A DNA stretch of 64,000 nt from a bacterium (GTDB taxonomy: Bacteria > Electryoneota > AABM5-125-24 > Hatepunaeales > Hatepunaeaceae): NCBI GenBank assembly GCA_021734165.1, contig JAIPJL010000004.1, positions 951 through 64,950 on the forward strand. The letters run 5' to 3'. The translations under genes were made by a program, and so were the position numbers. Below the pieces are notes generated by a model. It was not told the origin of the DNA. It ran no database searches and was given only the letters and a program-made list of their open reading frames with translations. This document shows positions 169-63,987 of this stretch, one piece after another; position 1 is the stretch's first letter, and each line of letters begins with the position of its first letter.

Positions 169-187
169 GTGTGTAAGTGTGAAAGTA

Positions 188-213
188 AATCCCCCCGCGT
201 CTGCGGGGGGATT
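188..213. terminator. GC-rich hairpin AATCCCCCCGC-gtct-GCGGGGGGATT (terminator/REP-like)
   Basis: Perfect 11-bp stem 20 bp after a stop codon; near-identical copy at 2059-2085. Confidence 0.7.
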
Positions 214-243
214 ATGGTTTTGCTATCTAAAAACGAAACACAC

Positions 244-272
244 TTGCTTCAAACTGTTTTATAAATTATATT
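244..272 (+). promoter_or_regulatory. Putative sigma-70 promoter
   Basis: TTGCTT-17 bp-TATATT; AGGAG RBS precedes the ATG at 357. Confidence 0.5.
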
Positions 273-356
273 TATATAAGTCCAAGATTGAAAACACATC
301 TACTTTCCATTCTTTGACGCTGTTAATGATTTCCGCTTAATTTAGGAGGATAGATC

Positions 357-2018: not shown

Positions 2019-2058
2019 GTATGTGTCAGTAGAACAAACGTTTTAACCTGTTAATAGA

Positions 2059-2085
2059 AAATCCCCCCGCAATGCGGGGGGATTT
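2059..2085. terminator. Hairpin AAATCCCCCCGC-aat-GCGGGGGGATTT between convergent genes
   Basis: Perfect 12-bp stem between stops at 2018 (+) and 2110 (-). Confidence 0.75.
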
Positions 2086-2109
2086 GATTCTAATCAATAT
2101 AATTGGAAT

Positions 2110-6009: not shown

Positions 6010-6965
6010 AAGCTCTGCGTTTTATAAATAAACAATTAGAACTCCAGGAGATAGACTTAAAGCCCACTCCTGAGAACGAGGCGTTAATTCGAGTTGTAAT
6101 TGCCGGAATCTGTGCGACCGATATGGAAATCATCAAAGGCTACATGGATTTTGAAGGCGTTATCGGACATGAATTTGTCGGTATTGTTGAGGAATGTCAG
6201 ACAAATCCCGATCTGATCGGTAAACGTGTTGTTGGAGAGATCAACGCTGCCTGTGGGAAATGCGTTTGGTGTATGAAAGGGCTGGGGCGTCACTGCCCGG
6301 ATAGAACCACGCTGGGAATATTCGGTCGTGACGGAGCTTTTACCGAATATGTTCACCTTCCGGTCGAAAACCTGCATATAGTTCCGGAAAACATCACTAA
6401 CCGCAACGCAGTATTCGTCGAACCACTGGCAGCGGCTTATGAAATACTTGAGCAGATCAATATTCGGACTGATGTGCCAGTATTGTTAATCGGTGATGGA
6501 AAACTGGCTCAGTTGATAATCAGAGTTCTCGCGCGTAGAGGCTGCCAAATCCATGTTGCAGGAGTTTCTGAGCGGAAGATTGAACGCATGAATGGTTTAT
6601 ACAGCCGCGTTTACATCAGAGAATTTCCAATGCCGGATATTTACACTATAGTTATCGAAGCATCCGGTTCGCCGGTTGGCTGGGATGCTGCTGTAAGTAC
6701 CGTCGAACCAAGGGGAACAATCATTCTGAAAAGTACATTTGCTGATGCTTTTAGTTTCAATCCTGCGCCTTTGGTAATAAAGGAAGTTACTGTTATCGGT
6801 TCAAGGTGCGGTACATTTGGAAAAGCTTTGGAAGCGCTTTCAGGTGGTATGAGAGTCAGCGACCTTATTGATGCAGAATTCACTTTTGATGACTGGCAGG
6901 AGGCTTTCAAAAAGGCACACGATCCTGAAACGCTTAAGGTTATTTTACGCATGGAAGGCATTTGA
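6006..6965 (+). CDS. Zinc-dependent alcohol dehydrogenase (MDR family)
   Basis: GICATD, GHEFVG, structural Zn CGKCVWC...C, IGDGKLA; ATGA overlap with upstream gene. Confidence 0.9.
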   Translation: MKALRFINKQLELQEIDLKPTPENEALIRVVIAGICATDMEIIKGYMDFEGVIGHEFVGIVEECQTNPDLIGKRVVGEINAACGKCVWCMKGLGRHCPDRTTLGIFGRDGAFTEYVHLPVENLHIVPENITNRNAVFVEPLAAAYEILEQINIRTDVPVLLIGDGKLAQLIIRVLARRGCQIHVAGVSERKIERMNGLYSRVYIREFPMPDIYTIVIEASGSPVGWDAAVSTVEPRGTIILKSTFADAFSFNPAPLVIKEVTVIGSRCGTFGKALEALSGGMRVSDLIDAEFTFDDWQEAFKKAHDPETLKVILRMEGI

Positions 6966-7972
6966 AAAGAATACATTCAACACCAACGGAGATAAGTCAT
7001 CCGGTTGAAGCAGAACCGATTATTGATGCAGATATTTGGGAAAATTTCTGGGAAAATGCTGTCAACGGAACGCTGTTTCATTCGCTGAAATTCATGTCTT
7101 ACCATCCTGCAGACAGGTTCAAACAGCATCACCTTGGCTTTAAACGCAAAGGCAACCTTGTGGGTATCTTTCTTAGCGCTGAGCGGGATGAAGATGGTGT
7201 TAAGACCTGGGTTTCACATCCGGGAGCATCTTATGGGGGTCCGGCATGGTCTAAAGGACTCCGCTATCACCATCTCGAAAGCCTTATTACAGCGCTTGTT
7301 GAGTATGCAAAGACACAGAACTTCGGTCGGATAAGAATGACGCCTCCACCGGCAATATATAATCTAATTCCGGAAGAAACGCTCCGATTCGCTCTGATGA
7401 GACACGGCTTTAAAATTGTACGCAGTGAATTAACCCAGGCAGTTAAACTCGACTTTGATGAAGATCAACTTATCGATCAAATGGTTAACAAAACACGTAC
7501 AGCTTATAGAAAGGCTGTAAAGGAAGGACTCCAGTTCAGGATTATCGAAAAACCTACTCAAGCTGAGTTTGATCGTTTCAACGAAATACTTGTTGAAAAC
7601 AGGGCTGGATTAGGCGTCGTGCCTGCTCATAGTCGTGAGGAAATAGAAAAACTTCACAACCTTGTTCCAGATAAACTAATGATGGCAGTTATAGAGCATC
7701 ATGGCAGGATGGTTTCCGTAATCTGGAACTTTATATGCAACAAAAGTACTGTGCTTGAATTTTACATGGCGCATATTGCTGATGCGCAAATCTTAAGACC
7801 GGTTACATTTCTGACTTATCATACGCTGCTCTGGGCGAAACGTAAGGGGTTTAAATGGTTAGATTTTGGCATTTCTTCGATTGACGGTGAGCCAACCTGG
7901 GGACTAATGAAATACAAAGAGAACTTCCAGGCGAAACATTTTATGAGATTAACGTATCAGCTTGATTTGTGA
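6962..7972 (+). CDS. GNAT/FemAB-like acyltransferase
   Basis: SHPGASYGG, tandem GNAT layout, WLDFGISS...GLMKYKENF; TTG start overlapping upstream TGA. Confidence 0.75.
   Translation: MKRIHSTPTEISHPVEAEPIIDADIWENFWENAVNGTLFHSLKFMSYHPADRFKQHHLGFKRKGNLVGIFLSAERDEDGVKTWVSHPGASYGGPAWSKGLRYHHLESLITALVEYAKTQNFGRIRMTPPPAIYNLIPEETLRFALMRHGFKIVRSELTQAVKLDFDEDQLIDQMVNKTRTAYRKAVKEGLQFRIIEKPTQAEFDRFNEILVENRAGLGVVPAHSREEIEKLHNLVPDKLMMAVIEHHGRMVSVIWNFICNKSTVLEFYMAHIADAQILRPVTFLTYHTLLWAKRKGFKWLDFGISSIDGEPTWGLMKYKENFQAKHFMRLTYQLDL
7910..7972 (+). repeat. 63-bp direct repeat, copy 1 (3' end of GNAT gene)
   Basis: 49/63 nt identical to 8708-8770 by manual alignment; first 20 nt identical. Confidence 0.9.
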
Positions 7973-7991
7973 TTCGTAATTACTCTGATAA

Positions 7992-8705
7992 ATGAAATCA
8001 CACATTAAAAGAGTACTTCCTAGATTTCTGCATCATTTTTATAACCGAATCGTTTCCCGTCGCAAGATCGCCGACCGGCTCGGTTCATGGTTTGAACTCG
8101 ATTGGAAAAAGAAAGCTGAGAACGCTGATACTTCAACCTGGGTTGATGTTTATGACAGATATTGGGAACACTGGTCGAAGCAGGATTTGTCAGAAAAGGA
8201 TTTAGAAAAATTTTTGCAGAGCATTACAAAGGGAAGTTCAGTGCTTGACGCCGGTTGCGGTGACGGATACCTGTTAGATAGTCTATCTAATAAGTGCAGT
8301 ATGATGACGGGAGTCGATATTTCCAGCGCTGCCTTGCAAAAGGCTCGCAAGCGGTTTGGAGATAACATTCTACTTATTCAATCTTTTATTGAGAACCTGC
8401 CGTTTGCCGATAATTCATTCGATACAGTGGTATCAGCGCATACACTCGAACATGTCAAGGACATAGATAAAGCTGTTTCCGAACTGAAACGGGTTGCAGT
8501 AAAGAGTCTTGTGATACTTGTACCAAGACAGGAATATCTGCCATATACTGAGGATTATCATTTACAATTTTTTCCGACTGAACAGGATCTATTGGACAAA
8601 GTTGGTATCAAGGGAGCGCGGTGCGAACGATACGTAACGGGTAATGAAAAGACCAATTATCAAGGAGATGTATTGTTATTGGCGGTGAGCCTACTTGGTG
8701 ATTAA
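7992..8705 (+). CDS. Class I SAM-dependent methyltransferase
   Basis: VLDAGCGDG motif I, GVDIS motif II, LPFADNSFDTVVSAHTLEHV. Confidence 0.9.
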   Translation: MKSHIKRVLPRFLHHFYNRIVSRRKIADRLGSWFELDWKKKAENADTSTWVDVYDRYWEHWSKQDLSEKDLEKFLQSITKGSSVLDAGCGDGYLLDSLSNKCSMMTGVDISSAALQKARKRFGDNILLIQSFIENLPFADNSFDTVVSAHTLEHVKDIDKAVSELKRVAVKSLVILVPRQEYLPYTEDYHLQFFPTEQDLLDKVGIKGARCERYVTGNEKTNYQGDVLLLAVSLLGD

Positions 8706-8707
8706 TA

Positions 8708-8770
8708 AAATACAAAGAGAACTTCCATGCAAAGCATTTTATGAGGCTTATTTACCAAATCGATTTATAA
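8708..8770 (+). repeat. 63-bp direct repeat, copy 2: orphan remnant of the GNAT 3' end
   Basis: Translates KYKENFHAKHFMRLIYQIDL* versus KYKENFQAKHFMRLTYQLDL*. Confidence 0.9.
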
Positions 8771-8824
8771 CACTTAACAAACTGCTTTTCTAACGGAACA
8801 TCCTCATTGTTTTGCGCTAATCAC

Positions 8825-8853
8825 TTGACATTATACTAACAATTACGTAATTT
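8825..8853 (+). promoter_or_regulatory. Sigma-70 promoter of citrate synthase
   Basis: TTGACA-17 bp-TAATTT. Confidence 0.65.
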
Positions 8854-8985
8854 ATTTCACAAGTTCGCATAATTTTTTTATTCGGTAGTATCTGTTTGTT
8901 TTAACATAAGTTAAAAAACATTTCATCTATAACTGCCCGCTTCAGACAGATCTGTTGGGCAGTAAAAATCACAGGAGTAATTTAA

Positions 8986-10284
8986 ATGGCAACGTTACAA
9001 GAGAGATTTGCTGAACTCGTCCCCCAAATGCGCAATGAAGTTGGAGGAGTGCTTAAGGAAAAGGGCGGTAATAAGATTTCGGATGTTTCCGTAAAACAGG
9101 CATACGGCGGTATGCGTGGAATTAAGGGCATGATCTGCGACACTTCTGTCGTCGAACCGGATAAAGGACTTATCATCCGCGGTTATCCCCTGCTGGAAGT
9201 CAAAGAGTTATGGCCTGAAGAAATATTCTATCTTTTATTAACCGGTGATAAGCCGGATGATGATGCTACTCAGGCTCTGCAATTAGACCTCGCTGCTCGT
9301 TCTTATGTTCCCGACTATGTTTGGGACGTTTTAACCTCAATGCCTGCAGACTCACATCCAATGTGCATGTTGAATACCGCTATTCTGGTTATGCAGCGCG
9401 AATCAGCATTCAAAGCTTGGTATGACAAAGGCATGACTAAGGATCAGTACTGGATTCCAATGATGGAAGACGCGCTTCGTATCCTTGGTGTACTTCCGGG
9501 TATTGCAGCCGGTATCTATCGCATTCGGTACGGAAAAGGCGATCCTATTCCTTACATGACCAACCTCGACTGGGGCGCTAATTATGCCCGTATGTTAGGT
9601 TTGCCCGATCCGACAGGCAACTTCGCGAAGTTGATGAGACTGTATCTCAACTTCCACTGTGACCATGAAGGAGGCAACGTTTCAGCTAATACTTGCCACA
9701 CTGTAGGTTCAGCCCTTTCTGATGCTTTCTATGCAGTTTCAGCCGGTTTGAACGGTCTTGCCGGTCCTCTGCATGGACTCGCTAATCAGGAATGTCTCGA
9801 CTGGATTCTCCAGCTTATGGAGAAATTCGGTGGCGTCCCGACAGCAGAACAGATGGAAGAATTTGCATTTGAAACACTTCGTTCGGGCAAGGTTGTTCCC
9901 GGTTACGGACATGCAGTGCTTCGTGTTACCGATCCCCGCTTCACCGGTTTCAACGAATTCGGACACAAGTATCTGCCTGATGACGCGGTATTCCAGACAG
10001 TTGATCGCGTATTTACAGTTGTTCCGAAGGTTCTCGAAGCCTTCTCAGCGGAACGCGTTGCAGCAGGAAAAAATCCGATTGCTAATTTCTGGCCCAATGT
10101 TGACGCCGGATCAGGCGCTTTATTGTATCATTACGGTCTCGAGGAATTCCCGTATTACACGGTGTTGTTCAGCGTTTCCCGTGCGATGGGTATGCTCTCA
10201 CAGCTCATTGTCAATCGTGCGCTTGGCACAGCTATCACCAGACCGAAGTCCGTTTCAACAAAGTGGATTATGGCTAACGCATAG
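8986..10284 (+). CDS. gltA: Citrate (Si)-synthase, eukaryote-like type
   Basis: GGMRGIKG, DHEGGNVSA, GLAGPLHGLANQE, VPGYGHAVLR, WPNVDA, FSVSRA; AGGAG RBS. Confidence 0.93.
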   Translation: MATLQERFAELVPQMRNEVGGVLKEKGGNKISDVSVKQAYGGMRGIKGMICDTSVVEPDKGLIIRGYPLLEVKELWPEEIFYLLLTGDKPDDDATQALQLDLAARSYVPDYVWDVLTSMPADSHPMCMLNTAILVMQRESAFKAWYDKGMTKDQYWIPMMEDALRILGVLPGIAAGIYRIRYGKGDPIPYMTNLDWGANYARMLGLPDPTGNFAKLMRLYLNFHCDHEGGNVSANTCHTVGSALSDAFYAVSAGLNGLAGPLHGLANQECLDWILQLMEKFGGVPTAEQMEEFAFETLRSGKVVPGYGHAVLRVTDPRFTGFNEFGHKYLPDDAVFQTVDRVFTVVPKVLEAFSAERVAAGKNPIANFWPNVDAGSGALLYHYGLEEFPYYTVLFSVSRAMGMLSQLIVNRALGTAITRPKSVSTKWIMANA

Positions 10285-10318
10285 TTTTAAGTCAACTATC
10301 GTAATTCTTTACGGAAAT

Positions 10319-10353
10319 AAACAGGGACGGCGAAATGTCGTCCCTGTTTTTTT
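10319..10353 (+). terminator. Rho-independent terminator after citrate synthase
   Basis: ACAGGGACGGC-gaaat-GTCGTCCCTGT followed by a T run. Confidence 0.85.
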
Positions 10354-10392
10354 ATTTCAATTACCTATTTCTCGAATTTGCTTTGAGTTCAC

Positions 10393-10422
10393 TTGACAAT
10401 TCACAGATATTACTAATATATT
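10393..10422 (+). promoter_or_regulatory. Putative sigma-70 promoter
   Basis: TTGACA-18 bp-TATATT upstream of the methyltransferase. Confidence 0.55.
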
Positions 10423-10511
10423 ATAAACAGGGATAGTATCGTAACGAGGATTATATCATAGCAACTCTTGAGAGACCAGACAGCGACAAGGGAATCCTGT
10501 ATAAACAGGTT

Positions 10512-11192
10512 ATGTCAAGATATCATTTTGCCTCATCATGGACAAAGGATAAAGTAGTTTTAGATTTCGGTTGTGGCGAAGGTTATGGTTCTAAATTAAT
10601 AGTAAATATAACTAAAACACTTTTTGCCTTAGAGATTGATTCTACAGCAGCGCAGACAACATCATCAAGGATAGGCAAAACTGTAGTAATAGCTGATGCA
10701 AAATCAACACCTTTCAAATCAGAGTTTTTAGATATTATTATTTCTTTTGAAGTCTTCGAACATATTCCAAATGTTGAACAATACATCAAAGAAGCATATC
10801 GAATACTGAGAAAAGGTGGACTATTCATAATGTCCACACCTAATGTTGAAACATATCCCATGGCAGGGATGAATCCATATCATATTAAAGAATATACAGT
10901 TTCTGAAGTTAAGGAATTAACAAAACAGGCAGGTTTTAAAAATCCTGATATTTATGCACAGATTGCAAATAATGAAGGAATTGAACGCCTTGAAAAATCA
11001 AAACTTCTTCTTTCTGTGATGAAATTGAAGCGCAGAATTGGATTTCATGGAGATCTACTTCCAAAATCGTTTCAACGAGTTATTCACAGAAATATTTCTC
11101 AAAGTGATACTGATCATTTCAATGAGGATGATTACTGTTTTATTAAAGATAAAGTGGAAGAACCAGAACTGATTTACATTTTTAAAAAATAA
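10512..11192 (+). CDS. Class I SAM-dependent methyltransferase (true start may be ATA 10458)
   Basis: RYHFA, VLDFGCGEG, SFEVFEHI, GGLFIMSTPN, NPYHIKEY; visibly AT-rich. Confidence 0.9.
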   Translation: MSRYHFASSWTKDKVVLDFGCGEGYGSKLIVNITKTLFALEIDSTAAQTTSSRIGKTVVIADAKSTPFKSEFLDIIISFEVFEHIPNVEQYIKEAYRILRKGGLFIMSTPNVETYPMAGMNPYHIKEYTVSEVKELTKQAGFKNPDIYAQIANNEGIERLEKSKLLLSVMKLKRRIGFHGDLLPKSFQRVIHRNISQSDTDHFNEDDYCFIKDKVEEPELIYIFKK

Positions 11193-11244
11193 ACTGTTCA
11201 AATTAGTACGATATTTTTCACAAATGTTTAAAGTAGGAGTAATC

Positions 11245-13662
11245 ATGAAAAAACTAATGTTTGTTGTGTTGTTGCTTTTTCTGACTTGTTTAATCAGAAA
11301 CCAGTTAACTTATGCCAGAACCATTCGTGTCCCTGGCGACATAAGAGTCCTCCAAACTGCTGTTAATCGAGCATCCGAAGGCGATTCAATCATCGTCGAA
11401 CCCGGTGATTATCCACACATTACAATCCGCGAAAAGGATAACTTAGTTTTAGTAGGCGCTGGATTAGATGCAGAAGAAATGAGCATCATTCGTGGTGTTC
11501 CGGATTCTCACACTGAGGTTGCCCTTAATGCAATCCGCTGTAATAATCTTGAGATAAAGGGATTTGAGTTTACAGAAGGCTATACGGCAATATGGCTTCA
11601 AGCTTGTGATAATGTTTGGATACATGAAAACTACATACATGATTTACCTTCATGGTGGAGTTCCTCCATCAGTATTAGCAGCACGGATAACTTGTTGATT
11701 GAACGTAATATAATGCTCCGGAGTTGGCATTATGGACTATATGTTAACGGAAATTACCTCGGACCAACTTGTGATAATATTGTGATACGAAATAATGTCA
11801 TCGGATGGATGGTAAATAATGATGGTATATATCTTGAGGATGCTGACGGTGTATATATTTATAATAACGTCATCATTGAGAATGGAGATATTGGCATTTA
11901 CAATTACAGACAAGTAAATAACCTACGTGTAGAATATAATTGTCTAATCGATAATGAAAATGGCAATAGTCGCGGTTTGGATTTAAGTCGAACTAATTTG
12001 ATTGATGATCCTGAATTCGTCAATCCAAGAAGGGATGATTATCATTTGGGAAACAACTCCCCATGCATCGACGCAGGCGATCCGGATTCCCCACGTGATC
12101 CGGATGGTAGCCTCGCTGATATGGGTGTTTATCCACTTCCTGAAATAGAAGAAGAAGTACCCGAACCATCATATTTTGAATTCACAGAAACAGATGTGAG
12201 TCATAGGCTTACAATTAGAAGCGCCGAATTTGATAATGAAGAACTTGTTGATGGTGATGAAATCGGAGTATTCACACAAAACGGACTTTGTGCAGGAGCA
12301 GCTATCTGGGAAGGTGACGGAACACAAGCGCTGGCGTGGATGGATAACGCTGATACCGATGAAATTGATGGTTTTGTTGAAGGAGAGAGGATTTATGTCC
12401 ATATTTGGCGTAGCGAGGAAGATGAGGAGTATCGAGCTAAAAGAATATGGATTCAAGGCTCTAAAAACTTCAATCCGAGCACTTCATCTACTATAGAGAT
12501 AGAAGCATTCTCGAGTGTGGAATGCACTATTGAAATGCTGAGAAGATGGAATATAATTTCTGCAAATGTTGAGCCGTTTAACAGGAATATAGTTGAAATT
12601 TTTGAGCCTTTAACTGAGTTAGATAACAATCCGCTTATTTTAGTTAAAGACGGGTATGGAAATTTTTATATCCCCGAATGGGATCATTTCAATAACATGT
12701 CAGACTGGAGTTATCAGAATGCATACCAGACATATCTTACAAGGGAAATTGATTTAACAATTGAAGGTAACTATGTTGAACCAGATCATCCTATTGCGCT
12801 TTATAGAGGATTACAACTAATTTCATATCTTCCTTCATGGGAATTGGAGGTTAACGATGCATTTGAATCTGTTGTTAATACCTTATTCTTAGTTAAAGAT
12901 ATGAGTGGCGATTTCTTTATTCCAAGGTATAACTATAACGATATGGAACCTTTAGCTCCAGGACATGGATATTGGGTTTGGATGACTGCTGATGATATGC
13001 TTATTTATCCTGACGAGCAACAGCGAGAAGAGAACATAATGAATAATGATGGAATACCTCATACTGACGGATTTTCTCAACTCACAGACAATATGAGCGT
13101 TCTTATTACTGGCGATGATCTTCTTACGAGAGATAAAGTGATCGCTTTAAACATTTATAGCAAAATTGTTGGGGAAGGATTTGTCAATGCTGAAGGATAT
13201 TGTGGAATTGCGCTTTGGGGAAAGTCTGAATACGCCTCAAAGGAAATGGGTCTAAGCGAGAATGAAATACCACAATTCAAAGTTATCAGGGGCAAAGAAT
13301 ATATTGACGCATCTTTACGGATTATAGAAGGGAATACCCATTATAAGGATGACTCTTTTGTCTTAGGTGAACTCGTTCTCCCACTTGAAAACCCTGTCAG
13401 GAGTTTTTCATTAATGGAACCATATCCGAATCCTTTCAACAGTCGCTCAACCATATCGTTTAACCTTACAAAATCCGGCATGATTCAACTTAATCTGATT
13501 GACCTCAATGGAAAGCAGGTAAAAAGGATCATTAATAAGGAACTATCTTCAGGCTCTCACGTTTCTTGTATTAAAGCTGAAGGACTTCCTAGCGGTATTT
13601 ACATCTTGCAGCTTTCAGCAATTGAAGGAACTTCCACCAAGAAAATCGTTCTGACAAGGTAA
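11245..13662 (+). CDS. Secreted right-handed beta-helix protein with T9SS CTD
   Basis: AGGAG RBS places start at 11245 (MKKLM); signal peptide; TIRVPGD...GDSIIVEPG; DYHL...SPCIDAGDP; YPNPFN tail. Confidence 0.8.
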   Translation: MKKLMFVVLLLFLTCLIRNQLTYARTIRVPGDIRVLQTAVNRASEGDSIIVEPGDYPHITIREKDNLVLVGAGLDAEEMSIIRGVPDSHTEVALNAIRCNNLEIKGFEFTEGYTAIWLQACDNVWIHENYIHDLPSWWSSSISISSTDNLLIERNIMLRSWHYGLYVNGNYLGPTCDNIVIRNNVIGWMVNNDGIYLEDADGVYIYNNVIIENGDIGIYNYRQVNNLRVEYNCLIDNENGNSRGLDLSRTNLIDDPEFVNPRRDDYHLGNNSPCIDAGDPDSPRDPDGSLADMGVYPLPEIEEEVPEPSYFEFTETDVSHRLTIRSAEFDNEELVDGDEIGVFTQNGLCAGAAIWEGDGTQALAWMDNADTDEIDGFVEGERIYVHIWRSEEDEEYRAKRIWIQGSKNFNPSTSSTIEIEAFSSVECTIEMLRRWNIISANVEPFNRNIVEIFEPLTELDNNPLILVKDGYGNFYIPEWDHFNNMSDWSYQNAYQTYLTREIDLTIEGNYVEPDHPIALYRGLQLISYLPSWELEVNDAFESVVNTLFLVKDMSGDFFIPRYNYNDMEPLAPGHGYWVWMTADDMLIYPDEQQREENIMNNDGIPHTDGFSQLTDNMSVLITGDDLLTRDKVIALNIYSKIVGEGFVNAEGYCGIALWGKSEYASKEMGLSENEIPQFKVIRGKEYIDASLRIIEGNTHYKDDSFVLGELVLPLENPVRSFSLMEPYPNPFNSRSTISFNLTKSGMIQLNLIDLNGKQVKRIINKELSSGSHVSCIKAEGLPSGIYILQLSAIEGTSTKKIVLTR

Positions 13663-51981: not shown

Positions 51982-52170
51982 TAGTAATGCAGGAATGCAA
52001 TACACAAAGGATTGACATTGACATAGAGAATATTTAAAATCCATTTAATCGTTAAAATGAGATATATATCAAGTGATAAGCATTGTTATATATGTCGATT
52101 AATCCTTATATTTAGTGGTATAATTGTTGCACAAGTCATTTTTGGTTATTCAAAGAAACAAAGGAATAAT

Positions 52171-53472
52171 ATGAACGATCTGAGTGAATTAATCTTCGAT
52201 AGTATCAGTGATGGTGTATTTACAGTAAATGATAAATGCATCATCACTTCTTTCAACAAAGCAGCCGAAGATATCACTGGATTCAAAGCTAAAGAAGCGC
52301 TTGGAAAACATTGTTTCGATGTTTTCCGTACAGAAGTCTGTCATAAAAGATGTGCACTTAAAGATACTCTTAAGAATCATGATCCTGTTGATAACGCTAG
52401 GGTGACTATTATAACCAGCGAGGGATGTGAGTTGCCAATTAGCGTGACCACAACTTTATTAAGGGATAAAGCGGAACGTATAATTGGCGCTGTTGAGTTT
52501 TTTAGGGACATTTCTGAGATCGAGCATCTTCATAAGCGTCTGGATGAACGGCGCATTTTAAGTGATATAGTCAGTGTAAACACTGAGATGCAGAAGCTGG
52601 TTCAACTGTTGCCCGATGTAGCTGAAGCTGAGTGCAATGTATTAATAGAGGGTCCCAGTGGTTCCGGAAAGGAATTAGTAGCGCAGGTTATTCATAATCT
52701 CAGTCCTCGCAAGTATGGACCTTACATAAAAATAAACTGTGCTGCCCTGCCGGCGACACTTCTCGAATCGGAGCTATTTGGTTATTCGAAGGGAGCATTT
52801 ACAGACGCTAAACGCGATAAACCTGGGCAGTTTTGCCTCGCCAACGGTGGAACCTTGCTGCTTGATGAAATCAGTGAAATGGATATATCGCTCCAGGTTA
52901 AGTTGCTAAGGGTACTGAATAATGGTGAGTATCAACCGCTTGGATCAACTAATACTATGCGGACTGACGCCCGGATTATTGCCGCAACAAATGCAAATCT
53001 TCAGAAGTGTATTGAAGAAGGACGCTTCAGAGAAGATCTTTATTATAGAATCAATGTTGTTAGTCTTCAGATTCCACCCCTTAACGAGCGGCCTGAAGAT
53101 ATCCCGCTTCTCGTTAATTACTTCATGCAAAAATTCCGTAAAAAAACAAGAAAATCTATCAATAAAGTTGCTCCGGAAACTCTTGCAGTATTAAGAAAAT
53201 TCCTTTTTCCAGGTAATGTCAGGGAATTAGAGAATGCTATCGAACATGCATTTGTCATGTGTCATGGCAGTGAGATCAGATCGGAGCACCTTCCGTTGAA
53301 TATCGTAAATAATGGTTATGCCACTAATGGTGTAACATCAGTTAAAACACATGAGAAGCAGGTTATTACTGAAGCCTTACAACGCAACCATGGCAATCGC
53401 AATCGCACTGCTGAAGAACTCGGTTTGCACAGATCAACTCTTTGGAGAAAAATCAGGATGTATAGATTATAG
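52171..53472 (+). CDS. PAS-domain sigma-54 enhancer-binding protein (OrpR-like)
   Basis: PAS with three Cys (GKHC...EVCHKRC), GPSGSGKE, ESELFGY.KGAFTDA, LDEI, FPGNVREL, Fis-type HTH; AGGA RBS before ATG 52171. Confidence 0.9.
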   Translation: MNDLSELIFDSISDGVFTVNDKCIITSFNKAAEDITGFKAKEALGKHCFDVFRTEVCHKRCALKDTLKNHDPVDNARVTIITSEGCELPISVTTTLLRDKAERIIGAVEFFRDISEIEHLHKRLDERRILSDIVSVNTEMQKLVQLLPDVAEAECNVLIEGPSGSGKELVAQVIHNLSPRKYGPYIKINCAALPATLLESELFGYSKGAFTDAKRDKPGQFCLANGGTLLLDEISEMDISLQVKLLRVLNNGEYQPLGSTNTMRTDARIIAATNANLQKCIEEGRFREDLYYRINVVSLQIPPLNERPEDIPLLVNYFMQKFRKKTRKSINKVAPETLAVLRKFLFPGNVRELENAIEHAFVMCHGSEIRSEHLPLNIVNNGYATNGVTSVKTHEKQVITEALQRNHGNRNRTAEELGLHRSTLWRKIRMYRL

Positions 53473-57207: not shown

Positions 57208-57381
57208 ACCTTAAGAAGATCCCAGTTCGCATTCTTAATTAAACATCTATCGGCTTGAAAAACAAGCGTTTAATGATGTAATTTGCTGTAAATTTAAAAA
57301 CATTAGCCGAATATCGATTAGTCGATTTCATCTTCATTATATTTTGCAAGTGGGATTTTCCAAGGGACGCTATACACATAA

Positions 57382-57436
57382 AACGCCGAGGCGTCAGGTT
57401 AAATAATATAATCTGACACACTCGGCGTTGTTTTTT
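57382..57436. terminator. Hairpin terminator downstream of the Glt-like operon
   Basis: AACGCCGAG...GTCAG / CTGAC...CTCGGCGTT with an A run on the left and a T run on the right. Confidence 0.65.
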
Positions 57437-57485: not shown

Positions 57486-59075
57486 CTAACCCTTCAGTAT
57501 CTCGTCAACTTCTTCCTTGTCAACATCCATCAGATAACGGATACCGCTAATGTCGGCTGCTTCATGGGTTATCGCAGCGATGTCACCACGGGTAATGTGC
57601 TTCATGGCGAATTTTCTATTTCCAGCCATCATTTGACGTAATCCCTGGGCTAACCTCTCATAGTAGGTGTAAAGACCGAGAGCGCCTGTAGGTAGCTTTT
57701 CAAATGCTTTATTTCCAAGCTTTTCACGAAGGTCGCCTGATGTTACAAAGATTTCATCCTTTGTTTGACCAAATCGTTCTACGTAAACCGGTAATTCTCC
57801 ACCATCAATTGCTTTACCGATTGTCTTGCCAACCATAGTCGCCGCAATGGGACCTCTTGCCATTCCAATCAGTTTGACATAAGGAGCGCCAAGCGCTAAG
57901 CCCTTATAAATCTGATCTTCAAAGGTGAAACCTCCAGCTAATGTCAACGCTGGGATTTTCATTCCTCTTTTTTCGAGACGTTTTGCATACTGATAGAGCA
58001 GGGAATGTAATTCAACTGTCGGCATGCCCCATTCGTTCATCATCCGCCAGGGACTCATACCTGTACCGCCACCTGCACCGTCAACTGTAAGCAAGTCGAT
58101 GTTGTATTTCGAGGCAAACAGAATTGCTCTCGCAAGGTCTGCCGGTCTGTAAGCGCCTGTTTTCAAGAATACATATTTTGCGCCGGCTTTGCGTAATTCT
58201 TCAACACGTGAAGCGAAACCTTCTTCAGTGACCATACCTACGCGTGAATGACGCTCGAATTCGGTAAATGAACCGCGTTCAAATGCTTTGATGACTGCCT
58301 TATCTGTCGGATTAGGCAGAACAACATAGCCACGTTCATAAAGAAGCTGAGCTTTTTTCAGGCTCTTAATCTTGACTTCACCGCCGATGTCTTTTGCTCC
58401 CTGTCCCCATTTCAGCTCAACGATTTCTACGCCGAGGTTATTGATCGCATATTCCTGAACTCCGAGGCGAGTGTCTTCGACATTAGCCTGAACAATGGTT
58501 GCTCCCCAGCCGTCAATCTGGTTGTCCTGGAAAAGTTTTACTCTTCGCTTAAGATCAACTGTGTCAATTACTCGACCTTTTTTAATAACAGCTTCCGGAT
58601 CCATTCCTGCGACGTTCTCTCCAATGGTAAGGCCTGTGCCGGCAAGAGCGGTACCAATTGCTAATCCATCCCAGTTGTTCTTGGCTACGTCTGTTGATCC
58701 AATACCTGGGATGATCCATGGGAGTTTGAATTTTATTCCGTTGTCAAATCCAAAATGAACTTCAAGATCAACATTAGGAAAAATAGCTTTATCGCTATCA
58801 GCTTCTATTCCGACAGCGCCGACTGCGGTTCCCATAATGTTGAAATGCGAATAATCGACCGGGTAGTTTTTCTCCGATGCAGTGGTTATGACGCCAAAAG
58901 GCTGAGGGTAAATTACTTCATGTCCCCTGTATGCCGATTTACCAATTTCGCACATTCCTACACAGCCATCAACACAGGTTACACACATTCCTGAAATAGG
59001 TGTAATTGATCCGTCAGTCCTGTTTTTTGATAATGTTGCTGCTGAACGGTTTACTGATGAAAATGTACCTGACAT
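57486..59075 (-). CDS. FMN-binding glutamate-synthase-related protein (synthase domain only)
   Basis: ELKWGQGAK.IGGE, LKTG, VDGAGGGTG, LAGG...KGLALGA; N-terminal CVTCVDGCVGMC; no amidotransferase domain and no Cys triad after LALGA. Confidence 0.8.
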   Translation of the reverse strand: MSGTFSSVNRSAATLSKNRTDGSITPISGMCVTCVDGCVGMCEIGKSAYRGHEVIYPQPFGVITTASEKNYPVDYSHFNIMGTAVGAVGIEADSDKAIFPNVDLEVHFGFDNGIKFKLPWIIPGIGSTDVAKNNWDGLAIGTALAGTGLTIGENVAGMDPEAVIKKGRVIDTVDLKRRVKLFQDNQIDGWGATIVQANVEDTRLGVQEYAINNLGVEIVELKWGQGAKDIGGEVKIKSLKKAQLLYERGYVVLPNPTDKAVIKAFERGSFTEFERHSRVGMVTEEGFASRVEELRKAGAKYVFLKTGAYRPADLARAILFASKYNIDLLTVDGAGGGTGMSPWRMMNEWGMPTVELHSLLYQYAKRLEKRGMKIPALTLAGGFTFEDQIYKGLALGAPYVKLIGMARGPIAATMVGKTIGKAIDGGELPVYVERFGQTKDEIFVTSGDLREKLGNKAFEKLPTGALGLYTYYERLAQGLRQMMAGNRKFAMKHITRGDIAAITHEAADISGIRYLMDVDKEEVDEILKG

Positions 59076-59103
59076 TTATTACTCCTTTTATTCCTTTTAT
59101 TAT

Positions 59104-59781
59104 CTAATCTTCTTTGATTTCACATGCTACACAGGGATCCATGTAACACATCATATCATGAAACTGATCCTTATCAACACAGGGTGGACTTAAATTCAGA
59201 CATCCACCACAGATTGCCTTGTCCGGCTCAGTGAAAGTACACCTTAACTGACAAGCGGGGCAGACATAAATGCAACCTCCGCAGAGGCGGCATACTTCCG
59301 ATTTTATGTCAAACGGTGTGCCAATACTCCGATTCTGACCGCGTCCCCGAAACCCGATTGCGCCCGCCATCATCTGCTCTTTACACATCCTAACACAAAG
59401 TCCGCATAGAATGCAATCTTCATGCTCTTGACGGAAACGCTGCTGCGTGACATGAAGTTTAGAGGCTATGTCCTGAATAGTTTTTGATTGTGGGCAAGAG
59501 GCGAGTAATAACTCAACAATCATCCTACGGGCTTTAAGGACACGTTCAGATGCCGTGCGCACTACAAGTCCTTCCTCGGCTGGATATGTACAAGATGTAA
59601 CTAATTTTGTACGGTCTCCGGTTCCGATTTCCACAACACACAACCTGCAAGCGCCGTAGGGCGTAAGTCCTTCCATGTGGCAGAGTGTTGGAATCGGGAA
59701 ACCAACAGACTGGGCAGCTTCAAGAATTGTTGTTCCCTTTTCAACGGAAACGTTTAATCCATTTATTTTAAGTTTGATCAT
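59104..59781 (-). CDS. NuoG/HydA N-terminal-like Fe-S subunit with Cys-rich tail
   Basis: IPTLCH...GACRLCVVE...SC; CILCGLCVRMC; CRLCGGCIYVCP; eight further Cys; GGAG RBS before ATG 59781. Confidence 0.85.
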   Translation of the reverse strand: MIKLKINGLNVSVEKGTTILEAAQSVGFPIPTLCHMEGLTPYGACRLCVVEIGTGDRTKLVTSCTYPAEEGLVVRTASERVLKARRMIVELLLASCPQSKTIQDIASKLHVTQQRFRQEHEDCILCGLCVRMCKEQMMAGAIGFRGRGQNRSIGTPFDIKSEVCRLCGGCIYVCPACQLRCTFTEPDKAICGGCLNLSPPCVDKDQFHDMMCYMDPCVACEIKED

Positions 59782-59785
59782 TATG

Positions 59786-62700
59786 CTACTCCGACTTCGT
59801 TTTGGTGAATTCAAGGTCGCATCTCAGACACCGTATCGCTTCATGCTCTGCATCCGCATCAGACATTGCTCTTTCCACTTCAACAAAGCTCTTAGTGCGT
59901 CTTTTAATTGGAAGACGTGGTATATCAACACGCTCAATATCACTCTGTTCTTCTTCGCTTATTTGAATTGGCTCAATGTAAATACTCGGAAGTTTAGGTT
60001 GCTCGATTTTTCTGAGTTCCTCACCATGGATGTATCGGTCTATCATTTTAGCTGCTTTCTTGCCGTCAGCGATTGCAGCAATAACCGTATTAGGTCCGGT
60101 AACAACATCACCTCCAGCGAAAACTCCGGGACGACTACATTCAAGAGTATTTTCGTTTACATTGAGTGTATTCCATGCAGTAATTTCTAAACCACCTTCG
60201 ATATCTTGCTTAATGGAGTTGACGTCCGGCTGTTCGCTAATAGCAATAATCAGAGTATCAATTGGAAGTTCGAAATTTGAATCCTCTATCGGGATAGGTC
60301 TGCGACGACCACTTGTATCCATTTTACCTAACAGGTTGCGCTGAAACTCAACACCTGCTATATGACCGGCTTCTGTTGTTATCTTGATAGGCGTGACCAG
60401 AGTTTCTAACTTGATCCCTTCCTGAATTGCAGCTTCGATTTCCTCTTCAAATGCAGGCATTTCTTCCTGTGTACGACGATATAGAAGCGTAACACTCTCC
60501 ACACCTTCCTGTCGAAGAGCGGTTCTTGCGGCGTCCACTGCCGAGTTACCTCCACCTATTACGCCTACCTTGCCTTTAGCGAGCTGCTTGCCTTCCTGAT
60601 TAAACACCTTAAGAAATTCAATGGATGGAAACACGCCATCTGCATCCTCACCTTCTAGTTCAAGCTGTCTTCCCTTCTGGGCTCCTACAGCAACGAAAAC
60701 AGCTTTATATCCATCCTCAAACAAGCTATTTACAGTAAAGTCAGTTCCTAAGGTACTATTACACTTTAAAGTAATGTTTTCGTCTAACAGCGAATTAATC
60801 TCTTTAGTCAACACTTCTTTTGGTAACCTATAGGCGGGAATACAACTAAACAGCATTCCACCCGGTTTAGAGTCCATCTCAAAGACAGTAACCGGGTATC
60901 CCATAAGCGATAAGTAATGTGCTGCTGTTAATCCACCGGGTCCCGCGCCAACAACTGCAATTTTTGCTGTTTGTTTTTCTGAGGAACGCCTTGGTTTATA
61001 GACAGAAGGCTCTACGTTATCGGTTACGAACCGTTTGAGAGCCCTGATAGCAACCGGACGATCACCGGATTGCCCCAGACGACATCTCGATTCGCACTTA
61101 TGATCGCAAACCCTTGCGCAGATTGATGGGAAGGGATTCTCTTCACGTATTGCAATATAAGCCTCTTCGTACTCACCGCGGGAGATATGCGCAATATAGC
61201 GCCAGGCTTGAGTATCAATAGGACAGGCAGATTGACAGGGAGCGCCGACTAATTCTTTACACACTCCCGCTCTACAACGCTTATCAATGATATGCTCAAG
61301 ATATTCGTTTCTGAAATATTTAAGTGTAGAAAGAACCGGATTAGGCGCTGTTTGACCTAAACCACACATTGTCGTATCTGCAACAACATGTGCAAGTTCT
61401 TCGAGTAGGTCTAAATGTTCAAGTGTTCCGCGTCCTTCTGTGATATCCTCAAGTAATTCGTACATCCTCTGAGTTCCTTTACGGCAGGTATAGCACTTAC
61501 CGCAGGATTCATCCTTCAGGAAGTTCATATAGTACTTGGCGATATCGACCATGCAAGTATTATCATCCATTACGATCATACCACCGGAGCCCATGATGGA
61601 TCCGGCTTTTGCAAGGCTGTCATAGTCGATTGGAAGATCGAACATGCTTACGGGGATACACCCACCGGAAGGACCGCCTGTCTGAACAGCTTTGATTTTG
61701 GCTTTGCCGATTGATCCGCCGCCAATATCAAAGACAATCTCACCAATAGTGGCGCCCATTGGCACTTCTACGAGACCGGTATTTTTAACCTTGCCGACAA
61801 GACTGAATATCTTTGTGCCGGAATTTCCTTTTGTTCCGACTTGTGCGAATTCTTTGGCGCCAAGCTTGATTATTTCGGTGATATTCGCCCATGTTTCGAC
61901 GTTATTAATGACAGTTGGTTTACCGTCAACTCCTTTATCAGTGGGAAATGGTGGACGCTGACGAGGTTCGCCCATTTTGCCTTCAATGGATCTTATCAGG
62001 GCGGTTTCCTCACCACAAACAAAAGCTCCGGCTCCCTTTATTACATCAATATCAAAGGCGAAACCTGTTCCAAGAATATCTTCGCCTAAAAGATTAAGTT
62101 CTCGTGCCTGCCTCAATGCTATAAGCAGGTGTTTAATGGCAAGTGGATACTCGTGACGAACATAAACTACACCATTAGTTGCGCCTGTTGCATAAGCGCC
62201 GATAATCATACCTTCAATTATACTGTGAGGATTTCCTTCAAGGACACTCCGATCCATATAAGCTCCTGGGTCGCCTTCATCAGCATTACAGATTAGGAAT
62301 TTACCGCTTCCGCTCTTTTTTGCAGCCAACATTTCCCACTTGAGTCCCGTGAGGAATCCTGCCCCGCCTCGACCTCGCAATCCGGAAGCTTTGACTTCTT
62401 CCACAACCCATTTTGGTTTACCTCGTTCCAAAATTTTAGCAAGTCCTTGATAACCTCCAGATTCTATGTAGTTATAAATCCGAATGGGGTCAACTTTCTC
62501 GCTACGTGAAATGATTGTGCGAACCTGTTGTTTGAAAAAAGGTATATCTTGCTGCAACTCAATTGTATCACCTGTACCAAGTTCTTTCCACAGCAATTCC
62601 TCAACTACAGTATCCCTAAGAACGGCATCAATAATTTTGGGAATGTCTTTCGGATTAACTTTCGGATAAAACGTACCGCGAGGTTCGATTAAAAGAGATG

Positions 62701-62926
62701 GTTCCATCTCACAGAATCCGTGGCAGCCAGTTATTCGGAGGTTAATTTTATCAGTTAATGCCCTTGAAAGTAATTCTCTTTTTGTGATGCGTATTAGGTC
62801 ATTTGCACCGCTTGCTTGTCCGCAAGTGCCTGCATTAATGATTATAGTGGGAATTCCAGCAGTACGGTTGGAATTAAGTTGGAGTCGAAGATTGTTAAAT
62901 TCATCAATTGATGTAAGTCTTCTCAT
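59786..62926 (-). CDS. NuoF/HydB-like FMN subunit fused to a GltD/NfnB-like FAD oxidoreductase
   Basis: Thioredoxin-like N-terminus, GLRGRGGAGF, NADEGDPG, FVCGEET, ESCGKCYTCR, PCQSACP, RVCDHKCESRC, VGAGPGG, IGGGNSAVD, GGDVVTG, CLRCD. Confidence 0.92.
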   Translation of the reverse strand: MRRLTSIDEFNNLRLQLNSNRTAGIPTIIINAGTCGQASGANDLIRITKRELLSRALTDKINLRITGCHGFCEMEPSLLIEPRGTFYPKVNPKDIPKIIDAVLRDTVVEELLWKELGTGDTIELQQDIPFFKQQVRTIISRSEKVDPIRIYNYIESGGYQGLAKILERGKPKWVVEEVKASGLRGRGGAGFLTGLKWEMLAAKKSGSGKFLICNADEGDPGAYMDRSVLEGNPHSIIEGMIIGAYATGATNGVVYVRHEYPLAIKHLLIALRQARELNLLGEDILGTGFAFDIDVIKGAGAFVCGEETALIRSIEGKMGEPRQRPPFPTDKGVDGKPTVINNVETWANITEIIKLGAKEFAQVGTKGNSGTKIFSLVGKVKNTGLVEVPMGATIGEIVFDIGGGSIGKAKIKAVQTGGPSGGCIPVSMFDLPIDYDSLAKAGSIMGSGGMIVMDDNTCMVDIAKYYMNFLKDESCGKCYTCRKGTQRMYELLEDITEGRGTLEHLDLLEELAHVVADTTMCGLGQTAPNPVLSTLKYFRNEYLEHIIDKRCRAGVCKELVGAPCQSACPIDTQAWRYIAHISRGEYEEAYIAIREENPFPSICARVCDHKCESRCRLGQSGDRPVAIRALKRFVTDNVEPSVYKPRRSSEKQTAKIAVVGAGPGGLTAAHYLSLMGYPVTVFEMDSKPGGMLFSCIPAYRLPKEVLTKEINSLLDENITLKCNSTLGTDFTVNSLFEDGYKAVFVAVGAQKGRQLELEGEDADGVFPSIEFLKVFNQEGKQLAKGKVGVIGGGNSAVDAARTALRQEGVESVTLLYRRTQEEMPAFEEEIEAAIQEGIKLETLVTPIKITTEAGHIAGVEFQRNLLGKMDTSGRRRPIPIEDSNFELPIDTLIIAISEQPDVNSIKQDIEGGLEITAWNTLNVNENTLECSRPGVFAGGDVVTGPNTVIAAIADGKKAAKMIDRYIHGEELRKIEQPKLPSIYIEPIQISEEEQSDIERVDIPRLPIKRRTKSFVEVERAMSDADAEHEAIRCLRCDLEFTKTKSE

Positions 62927-62984
62927 TGAAAATTTCCGTTGTTAATTCAATGTTAACATGATCGTTGTGTGTTTGAAAAGCGTG

Positions 62985-63833
62985 TTATACGTTTACACCG
63001 CTGAAATCCAGCAGATGTCCTTTACAGCCGTAACGAGAACATATCTGCAAGATTCCACCTCCTCTTACAATCATTGGAACCATCGGTGCTCCACATATTC
63101 CACACTCAGTTGCGCCTGTTAGTTCAGCATGGCAATGCGGGCAGAAAAAGTTAACGATTTCGTTTTCTGATGTTTCATATTCGGTTTTCGTGTTGTAGCT
63201 GCCGTAAAGGCTGGATAATCTTATACAGCCGTGCTTGCGCCCAAATGAGACAGTTACTCTGATCGAAGGCATGTCGTCAACCAAGTTTACTCGATCCATC
63301 AGATTATGGTTGCAATGCGCGCAACTGACCTCGACAGGGAAGATTCTTTCATCTGTTTTAACTTCAACTTTATCTAGTCCATCGCGTACTTCGCTTATTA
63401 TCTGTTTAACTCTTGATGTCCTAACATTGGAAAAATAATGTCCGTCAACTACAACAATCGGTCCCAGCGCACATGCTCCGAGACAGTTTACGGTCTCCAA
63501 TGTAAATTCATTGTCTTTGGTTGTTTCACCTGCTTTTATCCCTAATTGGCGTTCAAATTCCTCAGCAATTTTCGGAGCGCCCCTGACGTGGCAGGCAGTT
63601 CCGAGGCAGACAGAGCAGAGGTGCTTACCACGGGGTTTTAAACTAAAGGATTTGTAGAACGTCGCGACACCGTAAATGTCAACCAAAGAGCGATTCGTTT
63701 GTTCGGCGACAACCTTTAAAGCGTCTTCAGGGAGGTAGCTGTAACGGGCTTGAATCTCCTGCAGCATCCCGATGAGCCCCCCACGAATTTGATTGTATCT
63801 ATCTACAATATCCTGAATATCTGTATATTCCAT
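62985..63833 (-). CDS. NuoE/HydC-like [2Fe-2S] subunit with a C-terminal Cys-rich extension
   Basis: VATFY, VCLGTACHVRG, NCLGAC; extension with CAHC, CPHC, CGIC, CSRYGC. Confidence 0.9.
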   Translation of the reverse strand: MEYTDIQDIVDRYNQIRGGLIGMLQEIQARYSYLPEDALKVVAEQTNRSLVDIYGVATFYKSFSLKPRGKHLCSVCLGTACHVRGAPKIAEEFERQLGIKAGETTKDNEFTLETVNCLGACALGPIVVVDGHYFSNVRTSRVKQIISEVRDGLDKVEVKTDERIFPVEVSCAHCNHNLMDRVNLVDDMPSIRVTVSFGRKHGCIRLSSLYGSYNTKTEYETSENEIVNFFCPHCHAELTGATECGICGAPMVPMIVRGGGILQICSRYGCKGHLLDFSGVNV

Positions 63834-63958
63834 GCAGAGCCTCAGATTTCCTTATATTAGAGTAAAGTCGGAGCAAATATACTCCGACAGTGACGTTTTG
63901 TCGGGTGCTCTCACCCGATATTTTAATTCTTTGTCACTGCTTCCAAAATAATCTTTTA

Positions 63959-63987
63959 AAGTTATAATGAAGCTGAAATCATGTCAA
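63959..63987 (-). promoter_or_regulatory. Putative sigma-70 promoter of the NuoEFG-Glt operon
   Basis: Minus strand TTGACA then TAACTT at 17 bp (or TATAAC at 15 bp). Confidence 0.5.

Follow-up and report, generated by a model that had tools for sequence, protein, structure and literature searches.

A predicted Bfu-type complex with a fused GltD module and a distant glutamate synthase-like FMN subunit in a Hatepunaeaceae genome

The Bfu family of bifurcating enzymes has been sorted into hydrogenase, Fdh, Nfn, F420, Wor, Bam, Codh, Por, Mbh, Nuo and Rub types, in a classification in which the words glutamate synthase, GltB and GltD do not occur (PMC9304861). A B2 hinge site made of one His and two Cys (H524, C529 and C534 in NfnB of T. 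sibiricus) marks the bifurcating BfuB subunit, whose ferredoxin-like domain (B3/B4) takes low-potential electrons from cluster C1 and binds ferredoxin, and B5 is a zinc site that T. sibiricus NfnABC can do without (PMC12018979). One type-2 Bfu is WorABCSL, a tungsten aldehyde oxidoreductase-Bfu from Acetomicrobium mobile (PDB 9mqx; PMC12318220). In this study, we report a four-gene operon that suggests a member of the Bfu family in which both the catalytic subunit and the end point of the low-potential branch are new. It lies at positions 57486-63833, on the minus strand, of a 64,000-nucleotide (nt) stretch of contig JAIPJL010000004.1 (assembly GCA_021734165.1, positions 951 to 64,950), hereafter the window, from a bacterium of the family Hatepunaeaceae. 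No description of the complex was found in the literature.

The four genes, arranged head to tail in agreement with the initial annotation of this DNA and separated in transcription order by gaps of 58, 4 and 28 nt, encode a BfuC subunit with a tail, a BfuB subunit fused to a GltD module, a short BfuA subunit and a flavin mononucleotide (FMN) barrel protein. They very probably specify one soluble Bfu-type (HydABC-like) complex in which the FMN protein would be the catalytic subunit. The best explanation of the locus as a whole, to which we assign a probability of about 50%, is that NADH and NADPH are coupled through the Bfu complex to an ammonia-dependent formation of glutamate. The substrate pair taken by itself, 2-oxoglutarate (2-OG) plus NH4+ on one side and glutamate on the other, is given a little less than an even chance.

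The system is widespread. A scan with one genome per species found a relative of the FMN subunit in at least 590 genomes, most of them from anaerobes that have not been cultured, and in the best 80 of these the subunit was 78-91% identical, in hosts from many phyla that included Zixibacteria, Planctomycetota (with the anammox bacterium Ca. Scalindua rubra), Ignavibacteriales, KSB1, Latescibacterota, WOR-3, Fibrobacterota, Armatimonadota, Calditrichia and others; the closest among the matches listed was Ca. Hatepunaea meridiana. These best 80 and two metagenomic loci formed the set of 82 neighbourhoods surveyed here, with open reading frames (ORFs) obtained by simple calling and classified by BLASTP. 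In this synteny survey, a check that the initial annotation had proposed, the order BfuC(+tail)-BfuB-BfuA-FMN did not vary among the 58 loci whose flanking DNA was long enough, from more than 10 phylum-level groups. In a metagenomic protein collection, the FMN subunit was matched by over 8000 clusters whose identity was about 80% or higher, and at 50% clustering only 1056 sequences had E <= 0.001, with fragments prevailing among the matches listed; the family is tight and very conserved.

The first gene (P0001; 62985..63833, minus strand) encodes a BfuC/NuoE/HydC-like subunit of 282 amino acids (aa), with matches to Pfam PF01257 (165 bits) and PDB 8a6t_C (5.8e-45). Its 2Fe-2S_thioredx domain spans residues 6-149 and contains the ligands of the C1 [2Fe-2S] cluster, C76, C81, C117 and C121; the first two were kept in 45 of 46 orthologues and the last two in all 46. 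The tail that follows (residues ~165-277) carries eight conserved Cys (171, 174, 231, 234, 244, 247, 265 and 270), the extension that had been seen in the initial annotation, together with five conserved His (176, 201, 233, 235 and 273), and these residues were kept in 42-45 of the 46 orthologues. A ninth Cys, C203, was variable and mostly replaced by Trp. In the AlphaFold2 (AF2) model, the tail was a confident all-beta domain (pLDDT, the predicted local confidence score, 84-90), and a Foldseek search with the model gave matches to the NuoE part only and none to the Cys/His tail. The tail is a candidate family-specific metal-binding domain, for Zn or Fe.

The second gene (P0002; 59786-62926, minus strand) encodes a protein of 1046 aa in which Pfam and NCBIfam recognized Complex1_51K, SLBB and NADH_4Fe-4S (residues 142-546) followed by Fer4_20 and Pyr_redox_2 (550-955). 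Both these domains and the PDB matches agree with the earlier description of a NuoF/HydB protein fused to a whole GltD-like domain. The BfuB/HydB core (aa 1-556; 61259..62926, minus strand) had its main PDB matches in 7t2r_B (5e-198), 7q4v_B and 9mqx_B, and residues 28-561 aligned over their full length with B subunits from enzymes proven to bifurcate, 7t2r_B, 7q4v_B, 9mqx_B and 8a6t_B. The NADH/FMN site is represented by the motifs GLRGRGGAGF and NADEGDPGA, invariant in the 55 orthologues counted below, with matches to PF01512 and PF10589. The ligands of the B1 [4Fe-4S] cluster (C475, C478, C481 and C521) were invariant in 55 orthologues (38 long and 17 short forms, described below), and so was the Bfu-specific B2 hinge site (H545, C551 and C556), which has the same spacing as that of T. 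sibiricus NfnB. The thioredoxin-like domain at the N-terminus is degenerate, with three Cys only (C35, which is variable, C68 and C72), whereas a full B5 site has four.

The GltD/Stn-type module of P0002 (aa 557-1046; 59786..61258, minus strand) contains the Fer4_20 and Pyr_redox_2 domains and matched PRK12771 (450 bits in NCBIfam) and PRK12814. Its best PDB match was 9bov_A (2.5e-105), with 8oh5_C and 9n5u_A besides, and it was closer to StnC/NfnA than to NfnB (2.5e-105 vs. 1.2e-82). Cys residues for two [4Fe-4S] clusters are found at 564, 568, 603, 607, 611 and 615, followed by a flavin adenine dinucleotide (FAD) site (VGAGPGG), an NADPH site (GGGNSAVDAAR...YRR) and a C-terminal CxxC (1033, 1036); the FAD and NADPH motifs parallel those of E. 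coli GltD. The two dinucleotide sites proposed in the initial annotation, one for NADH and one for NADPH, thus find their motifs in the BfuB core and in the GltD module, respectively. At the fusion joint (P0002 residues 551-568, window ~61223-61276), the hinge residues C551 and C556 are also, by sequence, the two leading Cys of the GltD-type cluster motif, which means that one of the two, the metal site of the hinge or the first cluster of GltD, must have an unusual ligation.

Two forms of BfuB were found among the orthologous operons. In the long form, present in 49 loci, BfuB is fused to GltD (~1060 aa), whereas in the short form, present in 17 loci, a BfuB of 616 aa without GltD ends in a C-terminal domain that holds two ferredoxin-type [4Fe-4S] motifs of four Cys each. 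The strict pattern CX2CX2CX3CP was matched once in 14 of the 17 short forms and in none of the 49 long ones, P0002 included. The two forms diverge at one shared point, directly past the hinge RCxxGxCKxL, and the GltD of the long form stands exactly where the short form has its B3/B4 ferredoxin-like domain. The BfuB of the window thus lacks the canonical ferredoxin site. Ferredoxin as a third partner, expected in the initial annotation, is therefore not supported for this operon; only short forms keep the domain.

The two forms were interleaved on the tree of the BfuB core. At least two switches of form fell on well-supported branches (IQ-TREE, 25 sequences), at least eight were counted by parsimony on a larger tree (FastTree, 65 sequences, no support filter), and the BfuB of the window itself grouped with short forms. 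One locus (L063) has a short-form operon (154-4319), regulator genes and then a long-form operon (6194-13310) side by side. The repeated exchange of the two modules argues that the ferredoxin-like domain and GltD do equivalent jobs. Given that GltD stands in place of the domain with the ferredoxin site, it is fairly probable that NADPH takes the place of ferredoxin in the long form, and we infer from the position of GltD in the sequence that it is reached from C1.

The third gene (P0003; 59104..59781, minus strand) encodes a short type-2 BfuA. Translation most likely begins at the ATG at 59781, for a length of 225 aa that agrees with the orthologues, and not at the TTG at 59814 of the listed ORF. 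Pfam and NCBIfam identified Fer2_4 and a 4Fe-4S dicluster, and the best PDB match was 9mqx_A (2e-36 over residues 13-199). The A1 [2Fe-2S] site (C45, C56, C59 and C75) and two [4Fe-4S] motifs (C134-144 and C175-185) are present. As had been noted for the NuoG-like fragment, the His-ligated cluster site H-x3-C-x2-C-x5-C is missing, as it is from the aligned WorA (9mqx_A), and eight extra Cys are found at the C-terminus (188, 192, 202, 205, 212, 223, 228 and 231), which were kept in all or all but one of 60 orthologous sequences. These eight residues probably form the wire to the FMN subunit.

The last gene (P0004; 57486..59075, minus strand) encodes a protein of 529 aa, the only candidate for the catalytic subunit of the complex. 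Its only four Cys form an N-terminal CX2CX3CX3C motif (C31, C34, C38 and C42), which probably binds a [4Fe-4S] cluster. Pfam PF01645 (Glu_synthase) was matched with 57.5 bits (cut-off 20.4) at residues 281-402, in the FMN-phosphate half only. Among 19 relatives of the FMN subunit, 16 matched PF01645 and two each matched FMN_dh and IMPDH; no other Pfam family was matched by a majority. A permissive hhalign comparison of the P0004 family with the FMN domain of E. coli GltB gave a probability of 95% over 335 columns, with a modest GltB profile made from proteobacterial GltB fragments, which were all that the search with this domain for stand-alone archaeal-type relatives returned. In this alignment Q225-G-A-K228 corresponded to QGAKPGEGG of GltB and GGTGMSP to GGTGASP, and the QGAK, PHH-like and GGTGxSP motifs stand in the order of glutamate synthase (GltS). 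The AF2 model (pLDDT 80) was an FMN TIM barrel. There is no Cys where hhalign places the 3Fe-4S triad (C-x5-C-x4-C) of GltB, so that the initial annotation was right in all three of its structural statements on this subunit: no amidotransferase domain, no triad and an N-terminal four-Cys motif. P0004 thus appears to be a distant member of the GltS synthase-domain family.

From these parts a route for the electrons may be proposed. By its sequence, BfuB binds NADH at an FMN beside B1, and C1 of BfuC completes the "flavobicluster" core. In an ordinary Bfu enzyme the low-potential branch runs from C1 through B3/B4 to ferredoxin; here it would consist of the GltD clusters and FAD and end at NADP(H). 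NADPH electrons would accordingly pass from the GltD FAD through the two [4Fe-4S] clusters to C1 and meet the NADH electrons at the flavobicluster. They would leave through BfuA and the tail clusters and arrive, in the catalytic subunit, at its N-terminal cluster and its FMN, where 2-iminoglutarate, formed from 2-OG and NH3, would be reduced to glutamate. The overall reaction would be NADH + NADPH + 2 2-OG + 2 NH4+ -> 2 Glu, with neither glutamine nor ATP, and it may be reversible near equilibrium. Short forms would carry out the same reaction with NADH and reduced ferredoxin in place of NADPH. Thermodynamics does not favour the oxidative direction considered in the initial annotation, in which glutamate would have to reduce NAD+ together with a low-potential acceptor. 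As a tentative step beyond this, on which we would not insist, the operons may define a "Glt-Bfu" class: a glutamine- and ATP-independent glutamate synthase/dehydrogenase, with NADPH as the low-potential and NADH as the high-potential partner, that would perform confurcation or bifurcation with pyridine nucleotides only.

The link to glutamate rests on the neighbouring genes, on the QGAK motif and on what the genomes lack. Glutamate dehydrogenase (GDH) genes were in or beside the operon in 14 of the 82 loci, 11 of them co-directional, and no additional neighbour was as common; with the chance expectation put roughly at 0.7% per locus the binomial p was ~7e-16. Their place was often ahead of BfuC, on the near side of the regulator or small ORF, or else right behind the FMN gene. 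Loci with an embedded or flanking GDH included L022, L026, L037, L070, L092, L018, L083, L048, L069, L060 and L091. The five genes checked were true GDH of two subfamilies, the NADP-GdhA type above the NCBIfam cut-off in L083 and L069 and an archaeal/GdhB-like type in L022, L092 and L018. A sigma-54 promoter upstream of GDH in L026, L070 and L092 makes it the first gene of the unit there. In addition, the amidotransferase domain of GltB (PF00310, GATase_2) and its GXGXG domain (PF01493) were found neither in the genome of the window nor in any of the 79 species genomes of its phylum, 51 of them at least 90% complete, and both were detected in control genomes. PF00310 was also not found in three carriers from three other phyla, and no amidotransferase gene recurred in the 82 neighbourhoods. 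Any GltS-like chemistry must consequently use free ammonia. The earlier proposal of 2-OG/glutamate chemistry with free ammonia is thus plausible with regard to GDH, the conserved QGAK motif and the missing domains, and it is in the identity of the substrate pair that it stays conjectural.

Several observations weigh against glutamate as the product, and it must be said that the initial annotation had already warned that the substrate may be another. Several of them count in favour of an alternative that we regard as less likely, though deserving attention, in which the Bfu wiring is the same and the FMN subunit acts on another 2-oxo acid or imine, on a 2-hydroxy/2-oxo acid couple or on a low-potential acceptor, with the GDH neighbours reflecting a shared pathway or regulation and not the same reaction. 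The homology to GltS is weak and partial: the PF01645 match takes in 119 of 369 profile positions (185-303), phmmer with the single P0004 sequence gave no match to any PDB chain, and the family profile matched de novo TIM barrels in the PDB, with GltS chains only at E = 0.035. Foldseek scored the P0004 model about equally against alpha-hydroxy-acid oxidases, type-2 isopentenyl-diphosphate isomerase (IDI-2) and GltS (1ofd, 18% identity); in structure it is as close to flavocytochrome b2, to lactate monooxygenase, to glycolate oxidase and to IDI-2 as it is to GltS. Of the residues expected to contact 2-OG, the QGAK Lys is conserved, while the GltB Arg 20 residues past it is aligned with Leu244 and the nearest conserved Arg, R248, lies four positions on. 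Binding of the second carboxylate of the substrate by P0004 is therefore only putative.

Genome content points in the same direction. GDH, which already performs this conversion, is present in 78 of the 79 phylum genomes whether or not they have the complex, which leaves no signal of complementarity. Among 251 Planctomycetota, glutamine-dependent glutamate synthase (GOGAT) and the complex were only weakly anti-correlated (8/39 vs. 79/212, odds ratio 0.43, p = 0.046); for the core clade, 3/17, the result was not significant (p = 0.19). The genes around stand-alone relatives of the FMN subunit, which share 42-60% identity with it, are unrelated. The operon of the window itself lacks a sigma-54 promoter and has neither a regulator nor GDH nor a PPDK-like gene beside it. 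The potential of the couple 2-OG/NH4+ to glutamate lies far above that of NAD(P)H, and a bifurcating module does not seem to be needed energetically. Moreover, Bfu modules usually serve substrates near -400 mV (PMC9304861). Nevertheless, Bfu cores working on high-potential acceptors have been proposed before, for Rub-Bfu and Nuo-Bfu (PMC9304861), and a high-potential acceptor is thus no bar to the glutamate reading. Against another substrate stand the facts that PF01645 is the best and nearly the sole Pfam match, that the three motifs keep their GltS order, that GDH has been recruited into the operon from two subfamilies and that GltD is the natural partner of GltB.

It was also considered that the long form could be a NADH/NADPH transhydrogenase similar to Stn or Nfn-Bfu, with the FMN subunit as an electron sink, an electron source or a regulatory partner. 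The BfuBC core and the Stn-type GltD do provide both dinucleotide sites of StnABC/NfnABC, and the GltD half is nearer to StnC/NfnA than to NfnB. This explanation is nonetheless improbable. Short-form operons, which have no GltD, still keep BfuA and the FMN subunit, and the latter is highly conserved across phyla (see above). Furthermore, GltD of the Stn/Nfn enzymes stands on the BfuA branch and not at B3/B4 (PMC12018979), and the ferredoxin site that they require is missing in the form found in the window.

Split GltS enzymes occur in archaea, and an ordinary glutamine-dependent GOGAT with its amidotransferase and GXGXG parts encoded elsewhere could have escaped notice in a genome that is 86% complete. 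A canonical GOGAT with a separate amidotransferase, which the initial annotation had named as an outcome that would speak against its proposal, was rejected, since PF00310 and PF01493 are missing from the genome and from the phylum, and we attach hardly any probability to it. That the four genes are chance neighbours or separate enzymes is just as improbable, given an order identical in 58 of 58 loci across many phyla, gaps of only 4-58 nt and invariant family-specific Cys tails on BfuA and BfuC that have no other obvious role.

With respect to the surroundings of the orthologous operons, an NtrC-type sigma-54 regulator was found upstream in 40 of the 58 loci, usually with a GAF histidine kinase, and a sigma-54 promoter with at most one mismatch in 25 of them (e.g., TGGCACATCCTTTGC in L003); the frequency of these elements is counted in favour of the glutamate link. 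A small Cys-rich ORF (~100 aa) without any Pfam or NCBIfam match lay just upstream of BfuC in 38 loci (e.g., L003:2856-3149) and is missing from the window. Downstream of the FMN gene, proteins with a PPDK_N domain (ATP-grasp, phosphoenolpyruvate-synthase-like) were encoded in 17 loci (L003:9616-11727, L081:10720-13905, L066:10674-15639 and 14 more), some with a nucleotidyltransferase domain. Their N-terminal ~340 aa resembled the upstream GAF sensor kinase by BLASTP, and those ending in a nucleotidyltransferase recall covalent-modification regulators. The genome of the window has a PPDK_N homologue, 31% identical, elsewhere (G000:C97:6290-8386). In L087 (13015-17391), a second pair of BfuC and BfuB::GltD genes follows the first operon. 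The stand-alone relatives mentioned above, which have no Bfu genes, came from an archaeal metagenome-assembled genome (L009/L010), L008 and complete Planctomycetota genomes (L095-L098). A 55-aa ORF precedes the archaeal gene, and in L097 the FMN gene is preceded on the same strand by genes for a kinase with a PAS domain, a regulator of the sigma-54 type, a hemerythrin and a haem-oxygenase-like protein. In the complete genomes and the archaeon, nothing informative on function was found among the neighbours.

The operon of the window and that of its closest relative (L015) are bare four-gene versions with a sigma-70-like promoter and no sigma-54 element. In the window, the promoter candidate was located at 63959..63987 on the minus strand (TTGACA ... 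TATAAC/TAACTT), with the -35 CTTGAC common to L015, and no sigma-54 element (GG-N10-GC) was present in the 435 nt upstream of the operon, unlike in many orthologous operons. The 5' leader contains two stable hairpins (63867..63918, minus strand; fold -28.1 kcal/mol, z = -3.5), the second of them terminator-like in the scan, which were not kept in L015. An Rfam scan of the operon and leader gave no match. A Shine-Dalgarno-like GGAG precedes the starts of the BfuA and FMN genes. The operon ends in an intrinsic terminator identified from the sequence and by a terminator scan (57380..57429, minus strand), a GC-rich hairpin (AACGCCGAG ... CTCGGCGTT) followed by a T run (TTTTAT). The flanking genes appear unrelated: a GT4 glycosyltransferase and a GH130 protein upstream, and downstream a convergent protein of 359 aa without Pfam family, a Big_7 protein and a PAS-domain sigma-54 activator (52057-53472, plus strand). 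The last is encoded on the opposite strand, 4 kb downstream of an operon that itself has no sigma-54 promoter.

The identity of 78-91% that the FMN subunit keeps across phyla in the best 80 loci is a sign of a central and strongly constrained reaction. In spite of this, current annotation hides the complex under the names "glutamate synthase family protein" and "NADH-quinone oxidoreductase subunit". If glutamate is indeed made or consumed, models of nitrogen assimilation for sediment anaerobes that lack GOGAT would change, and the NADH/NADPH balance would be tied directly to ammonium assimilation in many such uncultured organisms. The repeated swap of the ferredoxin domain for the NADPH module is also a natural experiment on the wiring of the Bfu flavobicluster, and the long form offers a testable bifurcation system that would need no ferredoxin.

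Among the described systems, WorABCSL resembles the predicted complex in its BfuBC core and in a short BfuA (one 2Fe-2S, two 4Fe-4S and no His-ligated cluster) that feeds catalytic subunits distinct from it; P0003 has its best PDB match in 9mqx_A (2e-36), and 9mqx_B and 9mqx_C match P0002 and P0001 strongly. In contrast, the partner of Wor is a tungstopterin enzyme and that of the window complex an FMN/[4Fe-4S] barrel, and only the latter complex has eight extra BfuA Cys, an extra, putatively metal-binding BfuC domain and GltD in place of B3/B4. StnABC and NfnABC (8oh5, 9bov/9bp5, 9n5u; PMC7483475, PMC11829005, PMC12018979) likewise combine a Bfu core with a GltD-type module for NADPH, FAD and two [4Fe-4S] clusters. 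Their GltD is placed within BfuA, on the mid-potential branch, with ferredoxin at B3/B4, whereas the complex of the window carries GltD on BfuB, lacks B3/B4 and includes a fourth subunit, the one with FMN. HydABC and the NiFe-HydABCSL enzymes (7p5h, 8a6t, 7q4v, 7t2r) share the cluster ligands of BfuB and BfuC and the Bfu-specific His; the window complex differs from them in having no hydrogenase module, three Cys at B5 and, in the long form, a replaced ferredoxin-like domain. Finally, NADPH-GltS (GltB/GltD; 1ea0, 2vdc, 6s6s) and the ferredoxin-dependent GltS (1ofd) offer the PF01645 FMN barrel with QGAK and GGTGxSP, a GltD-type NADPH module and an FMN that electrons reach through Fe-S clusters. 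The window complex departs from GltS by lacking the amidotransferase, central and GXGXG domains and the 3Fe-4S triad, instead of which it has the N-terminal CX2CX3CX3C, while its GltD is joined to an NADH-binding BfuB and its FMN subunit is a very distant homologue.

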